Assembly (NCBI RefSeq): GCF_041146345.1
Contig: NW_027191406.1
Span: 1,426,001 to 1,490,000, forward strand
Reading direction: 5' to 3'
DNA length: 64,000 nt
Origin: Neodothiora populina
Lineage: Eukaryota
In this document: positions 1,198-54,949 of the stretch, piece after piece
Numbering within the stretch: the stretch's first letter is position 1
Layout of the letters: every line of letters starts with the position of its first letter
Translations under genes and position numbers: made by a program
Notes under the pieces: generated by a model
Told to the model about the DNA's origin: nothing
The model's database searches: none
What the model saw: the letters and a program-made list of their open reading frames with translations, nothing else

Positions 1198-4100
1198 CTA
1201 GAGCTTGACGAGTTTCAGCAACACGGTCAAATCCCTGACCTCGGCCTCTTCCTCGGCCGTCACGTCACCAGCAGAACCATCCTCCTTGACCACCTCCTTG
1301 GCAGCCTTGTCGAACATGGCCTTTTGATCGGCAAACATCTTCTCTACCTCGTCCGCGTTGCCCTTGGTGACGCTGTAAGTGACCCTGACATCATCCGTGG
1401 GGATCAGACCGGCCTTCTTGCGCAGTCGCTGCACGCGGTTCAGGAATTCTCTGGCGAGTCCCTCCTGGGCGAGTTCCGGATATGCGAAACTGTCGAGAAT
1501 GACAAGGCAGTTGTCGTCGACCGCGACCTCGTAGTTCTTGGTCTCGGGCGTCTGCTTGATGCCGCGTTGTACGCGGAGGTCCTCGGCCGACAGCTGGCAG
1601 CCTTCGACGGTGATGCTGCCCGTCTCGAGGAAAGCCTTGATCTCCGACGCCGGCAGGTTGGGAAGTGCCTTTTTGACCTTGGCGGCGTCCTTCTTGAACT
1701 TCATACCCAAGTTCTTGACGTCTGCGAGAACAGAGTACTCGACTCCGTATTTCTGCTCGTCGGAACTCAGGACAAGATCGCGAATGTTGAGCTCTTCCTT
1801 GACGTATCCTTCTAGCGACTTGACGTCGGCGAGGTATTCGGGGTCCGAGTGGATGACGATCACCTCCTTGAGTGGTGTCTTGAGGGAGATGGTACGTCTG
1901 TCACGGCAGAGACGGCCCTGCTCGATGACGGTCTGCATGCGCTTGACGCGTCTCTCGACCACCTCGTCGAAAAGCTCCTCTCGCACTTCTGGGTAGGACA
2001 AAAAGTGCACGGAACGCATATCCTCGCTGTGCATGGCCGCAGGAATGTGCTTGACGATGCGCTGGAAGATGTTGTCGGTGATGAACGGCACGAAAGGTGC
2101 GAGTCCTCTGACAGTGGTGTACAGGACCTCGAACAATGTGTTAAGTGCGTGCACGGCCTCGTCCTTGCCAGACTCTCCCTTGAGACGTCGTCGGTTGAAA
2201 CGAATGTACCAGTTGGTGGTGTTGTCAATGAGCTCTAGAAGACGCGGCACGACCGTGTACAGTCTGTAGACGTCCATCTCCTGGTTCACAAACTTCAAGA
2301 GCGACTGGCAAGAAGCAAGGATCCAGCGGTCCATGACGTTGGTGTTGGTCTTCTCGAGCGCGGGGTCGTACATGAAATCAAGGCCCTCGGTCTTCTTGAT
2401 CAGAGCAACCTGCTGCTCAAAGAAGTTGTAGCTGTTCCACAGCGGTAGAATGACGCTGGAAACAATCTGCTTGACACCTTGCTCGGCGAAGCGCAGAGGC
2501 TCGGCGCGCACGACGGGAGAGTTGATCATGTAGAGACGCAGTGGGTCGGAGCCGTACTTGTCCATGACCAGATTGGGATCCGGGTAGTTCTTCAACGACT
2601 TGGACATCTTCTTGCCGTCCTCGGCGAGCACGATGCCGTTGACGACACAGTTCTTGAAGGGAAGAGTGTTGAAAAGATGAGTTCCGAGAACAGACAGGGT
2701 GTAGAACCATCCGCGAGTCTGGTCGAGACCTTCTGCAATAAAGTTGGCGGGGAACTTGTCGTGGAAGGTGTCGGCGTTCTCGAAGGGGTAATGCGACTGG
2801 GCATAAGGCATGCTGCCAGACTCGAACCAACAGTCGAAAACCTCTTCGATGCGACGCAAGTCGCCCTTGCCCTGCTTGCTGGGGATGGTGATGCCATCAA
2901 CCTTGTCTCGGTGAAGATCATTGATCTCACCCTCGAAGCCGCTGAGCTCCTTCAGCTCGGCGATACTGCCGACGCAGACAATCTCCTTGAGATCGCTGCT
3001 GGCCCACAGAGGAATAGGGGTTCCCCAGAATCGGTTTCTCGAAACGTTCCAATCTCTCGCAGACGCTAGCCAGTTGTGGAAACGACCCTCCTTTACCATT
3101 GCAGGCACCCAGTGAGTCTTTTCCAGGTTCTCCAACAGCTGCGGCACGATGGTCTCGACCTTGATGAACCACGAGGGGACGGCGCGCTGGATGAGAGGAG
3201 TCTTCGAACGAGGGCAATGAGGATATCTATGGGTAATCTGGCTCGCCTTGACCAGTCTCCCGGTGCCTTTGAGGTAGTTGATGATGTTCTTGTCGGCCGC
3301 CTTGACGTGCTGACCCAAAAAGTCATGGACGGGCTCGATGAAGCAACCGGCGGCATCCAGAGGGTTCGGCGGAGATCTCTTCTCGTTGATGACGCCTGCC
3401 TTCCATGCAATCTGGTAATCGTCCTCACCGAAAGCCGGCGACTGGTGGACGATACCGACGCCCTCGTCATTCTTGACGTATGTGTCGTTCAACAGACGGA
3501 AACCGCAGTCCTTGAAGTCGTCGTAGAAGTAGGTGAACAGCGGCTCGTACTTCCAGCCCAGCATCTCGCTGCCCTTGTATTTCGCCAGCACCTTGTACTT
3601 GGCCTTCTTGGGGTCCTTGTAGAGCATCTTGAGGCCGACCTCGAGCAGGATGTAGTTCTTTCCCGACTCTTCATCGTGGATCTTGAGGTACTCGAAATCA
3701 GGGTGGGCGCAGAGGGCGGTGTGAGAGGGAAGGGTCCAGGGAGTCGTCGTCCATGCGAGGAGGTTCGTCTGGGCATCTTGGAGAAGAGGAAAGGAAACAA
3801 TGACGGCGGGATCCTGCACGTCTCTGTAGTCTTCTTGTGCCTCACTCTTGCTCAGCGGCGTGTTGAGAGCTGTCGAGTAGGGAAGCACCTTGGCGCCGTG
3901 ATAGACAAGATCCTTGTCGAACAGCTGCTTGAACACCCACCAGCACGACTCCATGAAGCGCGGATCCATGGTCTTGTAATCGTTGTCGAAGTCGATCCAT
4001 CGCCCGATTCTGCCCACCGTCTTCCTCCACTCGCCGGCATAAGTCAGCACCACCTCCCGACACATGCGGTTGTATTCTGCAATTCCAATCTTCTCGACTG

Positions 4101-19060: not shown

Positions 19061-20395
19061 AGGAGTTGTTGGTGGCGAGTTTGTAGGCCTGCGCTGAGTT
19101 AAGAGATTACCTAGATGTTACTAGAGATATTGCGACAGTCATGCCACGAAAATAATGTTATTCTGACGATGCTGTCACTTTCTATCGCGAGCTTCATCAT
19201 TTTGTCCCTCTTCGTTGCAGTTAGTCTCACCATCGACGACTGTATCCCTGCAACTAACATACTGCTGTTTCCATCATCAACCTTCGTGCATCATACTTCG
19301 CAACTGTCAGCGTTACTCTAGTCACACCTCACATATCACATTAGCATCCCCTGTGTGTTGACATATCAACAGGAAATGGACAGGGTCGCCTCCTCGAAAT
19401 CGAGCGACCGATCATCGGACAGAGCCATTTTTAGAAACCGCCGTAAGGATGCTCACACACGGAAACAGCGACGGCATCGATTAGCGCGACTGGATCGAAT
19501 CGCTTGTTGATGTCATATGAACCGATAGATCGGGGCCACAAAGGAAAAAGGAATGCTAGGGCATGCTCATATGTCCGTCTTCGGTCGGGATTCCAGGTCT
19601 TGGAATGCGGGAGACTTCGGACGTTCGCAGACAGATAGTCTAACTTATATTCTCTTCGCGTACTAACGGTTGTAGACCAGACTATCATTATGATATAGAA
19701 TTTTACGTATGTGGTCCATTTTGTTACTGGAGAAGTAAATAAGTGATCGGACATGGCTGGGAACAGACGTGTATTGATCAAGTACACTTGGATATCCTGA
19801 TGCTGATACTGGTGGTGATAAGGATGAACCCTATGTTCTTCTATTTGGTGGAAGTATTTCAAGGAAACATTTTTGCAGGAAGTCTGCGAAGGAAGAGGAA
19901 TTGTTACATGGCCTGCTTTGTCGTCTATACCTGCGCACATCAGGTTGGATGGCAACCACCCAGTATAGAAGTGCGACTGCGCTTCGTACAGGCTAAGACA
20001 GAGGACAATGATAGTGGTCATGGCTTGGTCCTGTTGGCAATGGTCGACTTGGGGGTGGATCTGTTTCCGGCGTCTGTGAACTCCGTCCCAGACAGTCCAG
20101 TCGAGAAGAAAACTCGAGCTCTTTGTTCCGTGCCAGCTTAATAAGGCTGGTTTCGAAGCAGGCCACATTTGATTCAATCTCTTTCCTCTCCCTGTGTACG
20201 AATCGGATCAGGTCCTCTAGGCGGTCTTATAGCTTAGCAAAAATTTCGAATAGGAGAGTCAACTTCGACCTTGGGGTTCCCTCGGCAGATGAACTCTCGG
20301 CGTCGTCCACCAGTACAGCAACAACCAGACACATAGAAAGGTCCGGAGCACCATCGCCAGAAGTGTTTCCGGCGAGCGGACAGATTCCAGGCATC

Positions 20396-26192: not shown

Positions 26193-27255
26193 TATTCCTT
26201 TTTGTCGGACGGGTTCTCTGATAATGCTCTCTGTTTCTGAAGTGCAAGGGCAAGGGTTGCCAAGGCTCATGGTTGCTGCCTCTTCGCATCTTCTTGAATT
26301 TCGTATTTCTTTTCCTGCTTCTCGAAATCATCATCACTGGGAAGGGTCAGGCCGGGAACAGGGTCATTTGATGACAGGAGTTTTTGGAACGGGCAACGGC
26401 ACACGGGGGGTGGTACAACAAGGGTCAGCTTCTGTTGACTGGAATTCATGCATGACTACAAATAGGGTGGTTGGCATCACAGTGATCACCATACAGTGCA
26501 GGTAGCGAAAAGAAACGACAAGTACTTGTGGTCAAGTTTTTTGTTATTTCTCGATCGAGCTATCATTACCATCACTACTGCTCTAAATGCTCTACTTTCC
26601 ATACGGTCTGTTCATTCGCTTCTCCGTTGCTCGTCTTCCCCATCACCGATACTACGCAAGGTAAGGTATGATTGCTCCCAAAGGTAAGCTAGGTACTGTA
26701 ACTTTACCTGATCTCGGCATTCTCTGCTGCTTCTGCCTACCTTCGCCTTCCTATTGTGTTGGCATGGTAGGAAATTGACATCGGAGCCTTTGATCGACGA
26801 AGACAAATGCGTCCAGATGCGGACGCCGCATCTAGCTACTGTCAGGAAGGAGGGCGAGAGATAGAAGAAGATAGGGGGTCTGGAGTCCACGGAATGGGAT
26901 AGTTCGTGTTCTCATATAATTTCTTTGCGTTGCTGTTGCTGTACAGTATTGTCTGGTACTCGGGCCCGGCTATTCGCGCTTCTTTGCCTTGCTTGAGGTG
27001 GGTAGGGAGGTACTTTGCATAGCTAATTACACATTACACATGAAACGTATACTGCTCGTGTCGTGTTGATTTGAGAAAGGGTTTGCTTTTGGGGTATGTC
27101 AAAGTCTATAATACATTCATGCATGCGGCTCTCCTTTTTATTTCTTACAAGACAACAACAAAATAATACATGGCTGCGCTCATTGACTGATATAGCTGCC
27201 GGATATAAGAGGGGAGAAAAGGGGGGGGGGGACAGAGAGAGAAACGAAAAGACAT

Positions 27256-43105: not shown

Positions 43106-45256
43106 ATGAACATACAGTCCCTCCTCAACGCTCCATCGTCTCCCAATATTCTCCCTCCGTTTTCATCTTTGAGTCCAAGCATAGCACCTCCCACTTCGTA
43201 CAACTCGCGTGAGGCAGCTACAATGGCTTGCGCCTCATCATCTTGTGCGCCCGCGTCCAGTACCACTTCGTTTAGCCCACGTCCAAAGGCCGCCAAAGAT
43301 GCCGCAGTCTTCCAGAGAGGTCCGGTCAAAGGCGCTGTCAATTATCCTCCCTATGAATGCAACGAGAATGATGGTGTCTTGACCAAGCCTGAACGCGACG
43401 AGCTTCTCATGCAGCACAAACGCTTCAAGATCTACCCATCCGGCGGCGACGAGGGCCTGATCCACGATTATGTCCGCTCGGTTCCCTACAGCAGCAACAA
43501 GAAAACCTTCTCTGGTAGAACCGGTAGAGAAGGATTCGAATGTAAGTGGAACGCGATTTGTTGTTTCGTCAGTTCACGCGTTTAATGCCATCTAGTGTTT
43601 CAATACGTCTTCCAAAAGCCCGATGAGCCTGGCAAGGAGTACGTCGTCATGTGGGATTATCAGAATGGACTTGTCCGTATCACGCCATTCTTCAAGTCGC
43701 TCAATTATCCAAAGGTATGTCGTTTATCATGATTCATCCTTTGAACCCCCGAAGCACATCTAACATGAAGTTTCAAGACCGCCCCAAACAAAGTGCTTGG
43801 CTACAATAACGGCCTTCGTGAACTCTCTCACAGCATCACCGGTGGCAGCATCGCAGCTCAGGGTTACTGGATGCCATATGGATGTGCTCGTGCCGTCTGC
43901 ACGACCTTCTGCTGGGACATCCGCTGGGCGCTGACACCCATCTTTGGTCCTTCGTTCATCAAGGATTGTCTTCATCCAACTCACCATGGCTACGCGCGCT
44001 TTCGTATCGATCCTGAGGTCATACGCTCTTGCCAGCGCCAGGGTGAAGGCTGGAATAACGACGGATTTGTCCCAACGTCTATGACAGGTCTCAATGGTGC
44101 GCAAGTTACTCCAGGCATAGCTTTTCGTCGTCACGATCCTGAATCTGGCTTTGCCGCACCTTCTAGACCCCAGCGTCAAACTTCACCTAAGACCTTACGC
44201 CCTCGCAAGGCCAAAGCTCAGACCGTCGTGGATTACTCTTCCGACGTTGACTCTTTCAGTGAGTACGAGGACGACAACGTCGGCCACTACACACGTTATC
44301 AGGATTCTCCTTGCGTCAGTCCAAGAACCAGAGTTAGCAACGCTGCGTCGGCCTGGACAAGCATCAACCTTGGTCCCGTACGTCCAGGTGCCGAGACCCA
44401 GATCCAGCAGGCCAACCATAATCAACACTTTTCCCCACGATTCACAACTCTGGAAAACAAGAAAATTCCTCAATCTTCTTCTGCATTATCCAGCGCAAGC
44501 TCCAAGAAAGACAAAAATGAGCATCTGTCTGTCATGAAGACCTCTAGTCGCCACGAACACTTCATAGAGTCGTCGATGCGCGAATCGTCTGCTTTCATGT
44601 CCGAAGATCTTCGCTCGCACAAGAAAAGGATGCAGCCCCCCATGAACAAAGCTCTGCAACACCAGCAGGAGTCCTATGAGCCTCGCGACGAAAGTTCTTT
44701 TGCCATGAGCCCAACTCCACTTAGCAAGGGACTTTCGAAGAAGGCGATTAGTAAACACCCCAACCGCGATTTCCATGACGGCACCATTGAAGGGCCTCCT
44801 GAGCTCTCTCGCTCCCCAGTGTCAAACGTGTCGATGCCAACCAACAAGCGTGCCATCAACGATGGTAATGCTCAATTCGAACAGCCAACTTGCCAGCCTA
44901 AGCGAAGCCACGCCGAAGCTTTCAATGACACAACTGGCACCAGTCGCAGCAGTTCCCCATACCAAGGTCGCCTCACCCCAGCCGAGAGAACCAAGAGGTC
45001 CAAGAGTAACGGTAGCGGATCAACCTTCTTCACTGCTGAAGATTACCGTGCGGCATTGATCTTGCTAGAACTGTCTCAGGTCGATGTTGTCTTTGGTCAG
45101 CAACTTCGTCTCCAGCAAACCCAGCAGGGTCAAGCAGATGGACTTCAGCGGCCCCAGCACAACACAGCAGGTGTCCAACACGAAGACGCGTTGAGCGAGA
45201 CTACTGTCGATGGTTCCGACGAGGAACTTCTCGTCGACGAATCTGACGCGGCTTAA
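43106..45256 (+). CDS. APSES/KilA-N transcription factor, Xbp1-like, 3 exons
   Basis: Introns 43542-43595 and 43715-43777 join [34 protein letters not shown] and [32 protein letters not shown]-terminal AALILLEL motif. Confidence 0.88.
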
Positions 45257-49228: not shown

Positions 49229-50881
49229 TTAGGAAGCGAGGACGTCGGCCTTAACTCCGTCCACCTCCTCGGCGCGCAAGATCTCGGGGTCAGGGTTCTC
49301 GGGGATGGTCGCGGCGGTATCGGGGATAGGAGTGGTCTCTTGGACAACCTCGTGAGGGTAGGAGTGAGTGGGAGCACTGGGGAAGGGCTCGGTGCTGGGT
49401 GCAGCAGGAAAATCCTCCTTCTTGACGGAAGGAGCAGTGGCAGAAGTGGTAGAAGTGGTGGGAGTGGTGGTAGCTGGGGCAGAGCCGGTGGTTCTGGCCT
49501 TGGTCTGTCCGATCAGATCCTGGGCTTTGGCGGTGTACTCGCTGGCGGTGCTCTTGGCGATTTCGGTGGCGCGCGAAGTGTGCTGGGCAGCGAGATCACG
49601 GAATTGAGTGGTCTGCTGGTTGATAACCGTGCTGGCCTCGGAGAGCTTCTCATCAATGAGCTTCTGGTTCTTGATGTAGATCAGAGGGCCGAGGTAGACG
49701 ATCGAGGTAGCGATGAGAGCAAGTCCCCAGGTGGGAACGAACTTGACAAGCAAGTAGGCGAAGAGAGCGGAAGTGAAAGCAGCAATGGTGGCATAGATGT
49801 TCTCAACGAAGACGACTCTCTGGAACTCGATGACGAAAAAGTTGATGATCTGCTCGACATCATCGAGGCAAGCATCAAGGCTCTCGCGGCCAATGGTGTA
49901 GTACTTGCGGGGACGCATGCGGGAGGCAAGTCCGTTACCGAGGACAACCTTGCCGGCAACCTCAGCGGCAGCGGTGACTGTGATGGGTCAGATTCAAGTT
50001 GCTCAGACAAAACACAAGACATTCAGGCTACTCACTACCAAGGACAATGTAGAGAGCCTTGAAGACATATCTCAGGACAGGCACGTAGCGGAGGAAGAAG
50101 ATGGAGGTGACGATTGTGGCATATGAGATGCTCGTCACACGGGGGTTCTGCCAGCTCAAGATGTTGTAGAACATCGAGTGGTAGTGGGTCAGAGGCTGGC
50201 CAGTGGCCGTAGTGTGATCGGGCACTTTGCGAGAGTCCATGACGTTTCTGAACTCGTTGGCAGTCTTGTCCTTCTGTTGTGATTTGTCAGTGTCTGCGTT
50301 TGATAGCAGCGAAGGATTACAGTCGCTCGTTGGCAGAAACGAAGAAAGCGCCTGACTGACCTCGTCGTACACAGCCTGTGCGGCGGGACCGGAAGTAATG
50401 TTTTGTGTCATTGGGTGATTTGCGATCGAGTTGTATGCACCGGCAGCGTCTGCGCAAAGCGTGAGATTCTAGATTAATTGCAAAGGTGAGGAGAGGGCGA
50501 TGCGGTGTGACTGGTGATGGCAAATATATGTCAGTAAAACTTGGACCAGGAGGAAAGAGACAAACGTCGACAGATAAGAAGGCAGGAGCCAAGTTGTGCA
50601 GCTGTGCAGGCAGGCAGGGCAGGTGTGCAGCTAACTGTGCAGCCTCAGAGTGCCACATTGCACTATGGCAAGGCTGAAACCACCGTTTCAATTCCAAGCT
50701 CTCTATTCACTCTTGTCTTTCGCACTTGGTTGAAAAATACAGCTTTTGCGAGGCTTTGTTCTCTAACATCTATCTGATCTGTACACGACGCACTGGATTT
50801 CAAGCTCACCTTACTGTTGACAGCTGCGTCCTTGACGTTTGCCGCCTTCTGGCCCAAGTCTGGGTATGCTCCCTCAGACAT
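49229..50881 (-). CDS. RTN1: Reticulon-like ER-shaping protein, 4 exons; first intervening sequence is a nested stwintron
   Basis: Exons 50881-50815, 50449-50361, 50273-50036, 49977-49229. Motifs YHSMFYNILSWQNPRVT, AAEVAGK..MRPRKYY, INFFVIEFQR and two long hydrophobic hairpins. Confidence 0.9.
50450..50814 (-). other. [D5,6] spliceosomal twin intron (stwintron)
   Basis: External donor GTAAG|T is split by an internal intron GTGAGC..ACTGAC..CAG (50809-50511). Its excision rebuilds GTAAGT of a 66-nt external intron ending in GCAG at 50450. Confidence 0.8.
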
Positions 50882-53800
50882 TATTGCTGGCTTTGCTGAT
50901 AAGCTAGTCCGTCGATCGTTTTCAATAGAGATCTATAATGATCAAGAGCTTTTGGAATACTGCAGCTGAATGAACACTTGCTGTAGGTTTCAGGGATTCG
51001 TGAAGAGCGAAGAAAGATTCTTTTCGTGTTATAAGAAGAAGTTATTGTGTAGAGGCCAGAGAGCACGCGAGCAGGGAGAAAACAGTGCAAGAAAGCTATT
51101 GATGGAAACTGCGGCTCGTGCCCTGATTGTGACGCTGACGCTGTCAGCTCCAGCCTATGACGACACATTGGGAAACCGGACCTGTGTTTGTGTTTGCCAT
51201 TTCTCAACCTGAAATTCACACGAGCCAAGTAAATCGAGGTTACGAGTACTGTAGCAAGGTAAGGTGATCGCTGTGACTTGTTTGACGTGCTTGTAGCCGC
51301 ATGCCATATTCACTGTGTTGATCTGGTACCAGAAAGCGCGTGAGATTGGCATGATATTTGAGCACATGGACACTCTTGAAAATCTCTGTCACATGCAAAT
51401 TGGCTACTTGCTGAAATTGTACATTTTGAAGCTCAGCGCTTGCGACTGGGTTCATAAACACTGGTCACTCTATAGACTCAATCCCGCTCTCCATCACTGG
51501 TTCAATCATTGGCCATCACAAGGTTCATGATCTCCCGCGGCTCGCAGATCTGTGAATGATTTCACAGCTGTTCATGACTGTGGAGTTGATCAAAACACAC
51601 GAGCGCGTACACCAACCGTTTTTGTTGAATCATTCCCAAGTCATTGCTCGATTAGTCCAACGCTCAGACCGCCGGCAAGGCGAGACGAAGCAACCTTATT
51701 TCACTGCCCTCCGCGTTCCCCGTAGTGATGCATCTATTTATGATATTGTGAGGACAGGGTCCGTCCCCATGTTCACGACTTGAAAGCAGTCCCGCGACGG
51801 TGTGCAATGGACTGGACGGGTGTCCGCGATTGTATTCTGCCTTTGTATACTAGGTAGAGACTTGAGTCGGGAAGTTTTGGCCCTGAATGGCTGATGTGAG
51901 AGGTACCTTAGAGAGCCCACAGTATACGCGTGCACAACATTGTCCTGATTTATGCTCACCCTGACATATATCTCTTGCCGCATCGGATACCGTATGGACA
52001 CCTTCCATTCAGCGCACTATTGATTAATGCTCCCGCAAAGCAGGCAAGGTGGACTGGTACTGCTTGTGACACGGAAACTACCCAGGTCAGTCAGGTCGAC
52101 ATAGATATATTGATCTGTATCAATGTCTATACTCGACCAGGGTAGCCGTTTTGTGCTTCATGGAATCATTCGGCCAACTCTACCGAACAGCACGTCCATA
52201 CCTTAATTGAATAATCGTTATTGCACGGTGAGATAGATAACGACACGGAGATCAGTGCAGCAGATAGGCGAAGGCACATTCAATATCATCGAAAGTCGTT
52301 TTGTTCTTCAGTACTGACCCTGACTTGCCTTGTTTCACTGCTGGTTGTTGATAGATAAAATACTCTGAGCGATCTTGTCAAGATCGCCTGTTCTATATCC
52401 AGCCCGCGCAGCTACCTACTCGGTGATTGAGAGAGCCTGTACGAATTGTGAATGAATAGTGAACTTGCAATGACGCTTGAAATGGCACAATTATTGGAAA
52501 CGCAGGAAACCTTAGAACGTTCATTTCAAAAGGATCACTTCGCTTGGAGATATGCAGACACTGACTAACTTTTCAATGGCTGTCTACGAAAGGGCGTCAG
52601 TAGTCAATGTTTTATGCAAGCACGGCGAGGATTGGCGAGATGTGGAACACAGCGTCCTAATCGAGCCGTCTCACGTCGTTGCTCTGCTAGAGACTATCAG
52701 ACTTGACAGCCGCCCAAAGGGCGATGGTAGCAAGCAAGGCAATCGCTGTCTGCAAGATACGTGGAAAAGTATGACTGACAGGTGAGCCATGGAAATATGA
52801 CACCCGTGTAAATCGATGTTCAGATCGGTCGCCTGATCCTTCCACAAGGGCAAACGCTGATTGGTCGTATCAAACCTCACTCGGGGCTTCTTGAGTCTCC
52901 ATCGCTTCACCTCTCTGATTGAAATGACAAAATGTCGATGAATATTACATTTCAATTCTTCAGTTCCACATCGATCGTGATTTTTGGCTTTCATGTCAGC
53001 CGATGGTCATTAGATTGAGTGCATGATATGTTTCTCCCAGCTTTGACCCTCGGCGAAGGTCTGTATACCAAAAGCAATTTAATGGAAAGAAGAGAGAATA
53101 TTGAGATGCAACATGATAGCCCGGGCGACACTTGTGAACCGCAGGATCATGCCAAGCTACTGTGGCGAGAATCAGGGATTGGCCATAGTAGTAGACATTG
53201 AGAGGCATACCTTTACCCTTTGGGACACCGTGGTTGGTTTGCGGCAATGCTGCTCACCCATGTTCAGGCTGCAGTAGGCAACAACATAACATGTGCTATA
53301 AGAAATCTCGTACCCACTCTAGCATACTTAGCATATTCTTTTCCCTCATTATATCATTCATAAGCCAGACACTTGTGTTGGACAGTCCATGAGTACAGGT
53401 GCGTCTTGTATGCTATGTTGAGACATTGCGTAGCTCCGTCATTGACTTGTGATGGCGGTCGTTATCTTGTGTATATGCATCCTGAGATCATATATTAAAA
53501 TCACATGCAATTGCTCGACAGTGGTTCGGACAATCAAGGCTACATGCGGCACAGGCTGGCGGTAGAATGGTATCTGTGAAGGCTCCAGATACGCGGATAC
53601 GCGCGATCGTCAAGGAAAAAGAAACCTCTACACAGAAAATGACACACAGATTAAGTAGCTGGCGCGCGCTGGCTGTCTCGGAGACCTCGGCGGCTGCCGG
53701 CCAACCGAGGGCTCCTTCCTAACATGGAAGACTAGTCCACCATCGTCACAGATACGCGGGCCTTGAGGACATCGCTGCAAATCACCCCACAAGTGGCGGA

Positions 53801-54634: not shown

Positions 54635-54949
54635 TGATAGCTCATCGTAACCACAGCCAATGAAGCAGCTATCTGAGAGAGTGAAATTCCCGATAGTAAA
54701 GTTCCAGACCTCTCTAACGCAGATTGACTGATGCTTTCCTAGTCAGCTTCATGTCCCTCCCAGGAAGGTGGGTCGATAAGTTACATGGCGTAGTCGCAAA
54801 TTGCCACTCGATATTCCTGGCTAAATTGACGAGCCCTATGTCTTATCTCGACCTTTGCGTTCAGACCAATGGAAACTCACCATACTACTGCGTTGTTATC
54901 TAGAGAGTCCAAAAGCACCTGCCATTAACATCAAGATGGCGATAGATAG
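54635..54949. promoter_or_regulatory. Cluster of 8 HGATAR (GATA factor, AreA-type) sites upstream of the OPT gene
   Basis: Sites at about 54635, 54669, 54691, 54774, 54843, 54896, 54940 and 54944; roughly one expected by chance in 315 bp at uniform base composition. Confidence 0.6.

Follow-up and report, generated by a model that had tools for sequence, protein, structure and literature searches.

The closest described system is the spliceosomal twin intron (stwintron) of the reticulon-like gene rtnA (AN5404), described by Kavalecz et al. 2019 (PMC6616335) as a [D5,6] stwintron that forms the first intervening sequence of the gene, in phase 1. The survey mined it in 754 orthologues and gives it for almost all Pezizomycotina, with less than 3% lacking the internal intron; a second stwintron is described in rtnA of many Dothideomycetes, and the main text of the survey names Aureobasidium. 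The rtnA stwintron was verified by RT-PCR in several species. Splicing intermediates, cloned or found, are on record for seven species (A. nidulans, A. niger, B. cinerea, T. reesei, N. crassa, H. solani, and T. melanosporum), which include a Dothideomycete (PMC6616335). The consensus elements of the survey are GURWGY or GURWGH for the donor, with no G at +6, DYURAY for the branch motif, and HAG for the acceptor. Intron definition is argued to hold in Pezizomycotina, and a role in exon skipping is described for A. niger and N. crassa (PMC6616335).

Two further systems are comparable in part. In the [D1,2] stwintrons, e.g., those of Hypoxylaceae (PMC9024468, PMC8469720), an inner U2 intron likewise interrupts the donor of an outer one, and the two are removed "inside out" in two reactions. 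The split falls between bases 1 and 2 of their donor, compared to bases 5 and 6 at the locus reported here, and many of them are repeated "sister" elements, whereas no further copy of the present one was found in the analyzed DNA. Recursive splicing and the nested introns of long metazoan introns also involve successive standard reactions with regeneration of a splice site, but recursive splicing removes abutting segments and regenerates a donor at the exon junction, whereas here a whole intron lies inside the donor (PMC6616335).

The locus under study is on the minus strand of a 64-kb stretch of Neodothiora populina DNA, referred to as the window. Its 365-nt first intervening sequence is very probably, at roughly 85%, the orthologue of the known rtnA [D5,6] stwintron. 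The host gene has a spliced four-exon coding sequence of 1143 nt with three intervening sequences in total (Table 1), and its 380-amino-acid product is identical over the whole length to the public protein AAFC00_004378 (P0001), the record of which is titled "hypothetical protein AAFC00_004378 [Neodothiora populina]". The species is classified in Dothideales, Dothideomycetes (NCBI taxonomy). Exon 4 matched the Pfam Reticulon family PF02453 with an E value of 8.4e-20 (71.7 bits, cut-off 31.8), and exon 3 matched profile positions 2-45 with 26.9 bits, a score that is below the cut-off of 31.8 when taken alone. The nearest protein relatives were fungal entries named "Reticulon-like protein", and judged by these matches the host gene is reticulon-like and the putative orthologue of rtnA.

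Table 1. Gene structure, splice signals, and further tandem-donor motifs in the 64-kb window of N. populina (positions in window numbering).
Feature	Position	Strand	Basis or details
Start codon ATG	50881-50879	-	Sequence reading
Exon 1	50881-50815	-	67 nt; ends ..GCT GTC AAC A, phase 1; CDS identical to P0001
First intervening sequence	50814-50450	-	365 nt
Outer donor, first five bases GTAAG	50814-50810	-	Sequence reading; half-donor conserved in relatives
Inner U2 intron	50809-50511	-	299 nt; GTGAGC .. ACTGAC .. CAG
Inner donor GTGAGC	50809-50804	-	No spacer after GTAAG
Inner branch motif ACTGAC	50535-50530	-	A at 50531, 20 nt before inner 3' end
Inner acceptor CAG	50513-50511	-	Next base T50510
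Outer intron, 3' remainder	50510-50450	-	61 nt; T50510 first; acceptor CAG 50452-50450
Outer branch candidate TCTCAC	A at 50462	-	12 nt from 3' end
Outer branch candidate ATTAAT	A at 50474	-	24 nt from 3' end; fits DYURAY
Exon 2	50449-50361	-	89 nt; begins AC GCT; ..NAAGAYNSIANHPMTQNITSGPAAQAVYDE; sequence reading, match to P0001
Intron 2	50360-50274	-	87 nt; GTCAGT .. ACTGAC .. CAG; phase 0; sequence reading
Exon 3	50273-50036	-	238 nt; reticulon domain begins; PF02453 match
Intron 3	50035-49978	-	58 nt; GTGAGT .. CTGAC .. CAG; phase 1; sequence reading
Exon 4, including stop codon	49977-49229	-	Remaining reticulon domain and C-terminal tail; PF02453 match
Further tandem-donor motif	19322-19332	-	Window motif scan
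Further tandem-donor motif	26661-26671	+	Surrounding sequence not coding-like
Further tandem-donor motif	54875-54885	-	Window motif scan

Exon 1 has 67 nt, so the first intervening sequence interrupts the frame in phase 1; it lies in the N-terminal part, upstream of where the reticulon domain is encoded. Bases 5 and 6 of the outer donor are separated, GTAAG/GTGAGC (50814-50804; slashes mark boundaries), and the inner signals GTGAGC, ACTGAC, and CAG all conform to the GURWGH, DYURAY, and HAG consensus. When 50809-50511 is removed, T50510 joins GTAAG to form a GTAAGT donor, leaving a 66-nt outer intron that is canonical at both ends with its GTAAGT donor and CAG acceptor. The conserved outer branch motif, (T/A)CTCAC, is off the DYURAY consensus at the R position; CTCAC placed 12-13 nt before the outer acceptor is common to the window and the related loci L027, L006, L007, L009, and L010, which were identified as described below.

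Removal of both introns joined exons 1 and 2 in frame (..AAVN/NAAGAYNSIANHPMTQ..), and this was the single nested parse that yielded a homology-supported protein under the applied rule set. Pairing the inner donor with the outer acceptor adds 5 nt, and pairing the outer donor with the inner acceptor leaves in 61 nt, both causing a frameshift, and an alternative upstream acceptor TAG at 50471-50469 is out of frame. Productive skipping of exon 2 of the A. niger and N. crassa type was rejected, because an 89-nt exon between a phase-1 and a phase-0 intron cannot be skipped without a shift of frame. The original prediction, made from the sequence, had placed a [D5,6] stwintron in a reticulon gene here. 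Its coordinates and signals were correct to the base on the minus-strand reading and its [D5,6] anatomy, GTAAG/GTGAGC and then T50510, was exact; the claimed in-frame join was confirmed by the identity of the 380-residue product to P0001 and the claimed gene by the PF02453 match of exon 4.

In comparison to the rtnA stwintron as published, the element belongs to a gene of the same PF02453 family and shares the first position, phase 1, the N-terminal region, and the GUAAG/U split, with canonical U2 signals in each of the two nested introns. The outer intron is similar in size to that of A. nidulans rtnA (66 nt here, 76 nt there), whereas the inner intron has 299 nt compared to 75 nt (PMC6616335). 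Three intervening sequences are present here, against six intron positions given for A. nidulans. The second intron, in phase 0, also differs from the described gene, its position being seen elsewhere only in L027 (after ..AVYDE) and being empty in the Aureobasidium-like loci L006, L007, L009, and L010. Intron 2 is in frame and free of stop codons, and its retention would therefore add 29 residues; it appears to be a lineage-specific, minor local feature.

Related loci were collected by running a profile from 35 RtnA proteins over metagenome contigs, which gave 517 pattern matches and 282 confirmed relatives. The best 80 of the 282 (L001-L080) were divided into 23 loci classed as genomic, because introns were present, and 57 transcript-like contigs. 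Alignment of orthologous loci, a check proposed in the original prediction, returned the same arrangement, the donor being split at an identical codon position in phase 1, in 21 of the 23 genomic loci among the best 80 of 282 relatives, in the context ..[KR]xx[VI]x[NE]/[NT]A..NHP. The half-donor following exon 1 was GTAAG, GTGAG, or GTCAG. Seventeen of these 21 loci were recovered with the regular expression GTRNG/GTRNGN and four variants by eye, namely, GTAAG/GTTGGT in L060 and GTCAG/GT.. in L065, L066, and L074. As for the other two genomic loci, L075 has a plain GTAAGT intron without an inner intron at the stwintron position (~3900-3970), which is consistent with the sporadic losses in print (PMC6616335), and L080 is uninformative, since its upstream part is cut off and it begins inside the intron. 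After merging of the near-identical pairs L006/L007, L039/L040, L065/L066, and L078/L079 (97.5-99.0% identity), 17 lineages with the split donor and one without it remained among the best 80 of 282 relatives, a ratio that agrees with the survey's "almost all" and its figure of <3% in which the internal intron is missing (PMC6616335).

The signals following the split donor were retained as well. An inner branch motif was present 10-20 nt before the inner acceptor in the window and in all 21 loci from the best 80 of 282, and the base after the inner acceptor was T in 20 of these loci and A in one (L060). All tabulated loci and the window have an outer intron of 54-84 nt with a branch motif 11-17 nt before the acceptor, and the junction peptides were similar throughout, e.g., VKDAAVN/NAAGAYNSIANHP in the window and AKDSVVN/NASNAYDRVANHP in L027. 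With L027, which is closest to it among the genomic loci in the best 80 of 282, the window shared only the exon ends and splice signals; the intron interiors did not align, while the signals were conserved.

Nine regular-expression matches lay off the orthologous position (L026, L027, L038, L041, L043, L061, L065, L066, and L078) and were taken as chance. Separately, four Pleosporales-like loci had another intervening sequence of the tandem-donor ([D5,6]-like) type one exon downstream of the first, at 3547 in L063, 3896 in L076, 3904 in L078, and 867 in L079. Removal of the one in L063 was confirmed by transcript L016; the window gene has no second stwintron.

At the RNA level, complete removal of a first intervening sequence was seen in the same transcript. 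In contig L016, which has 100% identity to its genomic counterpart L063, positions 3338-3474 of L063 are absent, a gap of 137 nt that equals the 66-nt inner and 71-nt outer introns of the L063 parse. Contig L003, the best protein match of which is Aureobasidium RtnA (83% identity), aligned in segments with genomic L007 at 94-98% identity. Relative to L007 (region 3735-3983), the 194-nt inner intron was gone from L003, as was a downstream 57-nt intron (L007 4284-4340), and the 55-nt outer intron (98-152) was kept, now beginning with GTAAGT and bringing in a premature in-frame TAA. Its origin from RNA is suggested by the missing downstream intron, the mRNA-like ends, and the lack of introns in another contig of the same data-set series. 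L003 is likely a [D5,6] splicing intermediate of an Aureobasidium-like fungus. It matched no genomic locus at full identity among the best 80 of 282 relatives, and it could alternatively come from a species that lacks the inner intron, as a case of plain intron retention. The 57 transcript-like contigs from the best 80 of 282 were reduced to 55 by leaving out two cut at the 5' end, and L003 was the only one of the 55 with a frame broken upstream of the match. For N. populina itself, one sequencing run matched the locus (14% of sampled words) and gave two contigs over 49744-50088; they pass through intron 3 and are thus DNA, uninformative on splicing.

A minor local feature of the window copy is the length of its inner intron. 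Its 299 nt compare with 288 nt in L027, 181-213 nt in L006-L011, and 54-71 nt in the 13 other loci. By these lengths, the inner intron has apparently grown four- to five-fold in a Dothideomycetidae-like group, and the outer intron has kept its size (54-84 nt). No Rfam match was found inside the inner intron; a sub-threshold DnaX match (17.7 bits against 35) lay outside it, at 51070-51128. The minimum free energy of the inner intron was -73.9 kcal/mol, compared to a shuffle mean of -82.1 (z +1.72), with 195 of 200 shuffles folding equally well or better. BLAST within the window returned no other copy, only the sequence itself and chance matches of at most 24 nt. With no Rfam match, ordinary folding, and no copy in the window, the readings of the inner intron as a snoRNA, a structured RNA, or a repeat (introner-like) element were rejected within the scope of the one 64-kb window. 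The inner-intron sequence showed no conservation with L027. A lineage-specific function of the long inner intron, either regulatory or in timing or quality control of rtnA via unproductive pairings, is highly improbable.

The arrangement was compared with chance expectation. When the intron interior was shuffled 200,000 times, a second donor directly after GTAAG appeared 927 times (0.46%) and the complete nested parse, including T behind the inner acceptor, 234 times (0.12%). The tandem-donor motif was not enriched in the 64-kb window, with 4 occurrences against 1.84 expected and at least 4 in 11 of 100 shuffles. On its own the motif is little proof; its placement at the exon 1 boundary and its conservation in relatives, unlike the bare motif, go beyond chance. 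The three further tandem-donor motifs of the window (Table 1) were dropped, showing neither an excess over chance nor a convincing coding context. A crude and noisy intron scan of the window gave 25 candidates, in which donor position 6 was T in 10, A in 8, C in 6, and G in 1. The candidate with G, 54 nt long and starting GTAAGG, lies at 44145-44198 on the minus strand; if it is real, G at +6 would be tolerated in the N. populina genome.

The same mRNA would also result if the 365 nt were one long intron, removed in a single step from the GTAAGG donor at 50814 with the distal branch and the acceptor at 50450, the nested signals being a relic or in minority use. An ordinary U2 intron that used GTAAGG as a weak donor would have these same outer boundaries, and the window scan, noisy as it is, offers one candidate intron of that kind. 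Moreover, with the tandem donor in place, chance supplied the remaining parts of the nested parse in 5,574 of 20,000 shuffles (28%). An ordinary GTAAGG intron, however, has no need of, and would not be under selection for, a donor at +6, an inner branch motif, and an acceptor with T behind it. Nor would removal in one step maintain them by selection, yet the second donor, inner branch, and acceptor with the following T (A once) were kept in 21 of 21 tandem-donor loci among the best 80 of 282 relatives, the interiors of which had diverged. G at +6 falls outside the published fungal donor consensus GURWGY or GURWGH, fungal intron definition favors the nearest branch motif and acceptor, and intermediates are documented in seven species (PMC6616335), with a likely further one in the Aureobasidium-like L003. 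Removal in one step is therefore improbable.

An error in the gene model would undermine the nested structure in another way, if another start codon or exon were used and the pattern lay in sequence that is untranslated or not spliced. RtnA proteins are weakly conserved in their N-terminal region and the public protein is possibly an automatic prediction, both of which leave some room for such an error. Against it, the peptide VKDAAVN/NAAGAYNSIANHP aligned with the junction peptides of relatives, spliced transcript contigs included, and all other pairings of the sites break the frame. A wrong model is barely credible on these grounds, and the stwintron remains the preferred reading.

For the stwintron, the order of splicing in N. 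populina proposed here is inferred from the relatives and from published experiments. U1 would bind the better of the two overlapping donors, AAG/GTGAGC; because they overlap, just one can be engaged at any time. AAG/GTGAGC is closer to the donor consensus than ACA/GTAAGG and presumably forms more base pairs with U1. The inner donor would then pair by intron definition with the nearest branch motif (A 50531) and the acceptor CAG at 50511, and the 299-nt inner intron would be released as a lariat. Ligation would set T50510 behind GTAAG, turning the poor GTAAGG into a perfect GTAAGT, and the intermediate junction 50810/50510 would read ..AACAGTAAG/TCACACC... An ordinary U2 reaction would next excise the 66-nt outer intron, using a branch point near 50462 and the acceptor CAG at 50450, and AAC A would be joined in frame to AC GCT at the mature junction 50815/50449. 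One point against this order is that an inner intron of 299 nt is far above the size usual for fungal intron definition.

The original prediction had referred to literature on this class in Pezizomycotina, including the Aspergillus reticulon-like gene, which indeed exists and concerns the same gene (PMC6616335). Its suggestion that the instance may be unannotated holds for the nested nature, which is unrecorded, but not for the mature junction 50815/50449, which is annotated by way of the identical public protein. The name N. populina appears in a species-description paper of December 2020, later than the 2019 survey, and among the papers listed in a literature search none with "Neodothiora" also contained "stwintron"; the N. 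populina instance itself is probably not in print. It is nevertheless already known, being orthologous to a described element that is explicitly called near-universal: the element is real, ordinary, and already described.

The finding has little importance beyond annotation, where genes of this kind could be modelled wrongly by predictors that do not accept GTAAGG donors, although the public model is correct here. Among the related contigs, L003 seems to be environmental RNA in which such an intermediate, from an Aureobasidium-like fungus, was caught during splicing. For the family, the N. populina locus adds one data point, 299 nt, to the sizes of the inner intron. The oldest known stwintron is recognisable here from raw sequence, and it is retained in a Dothideales species whose description postdates the 2019 survey.
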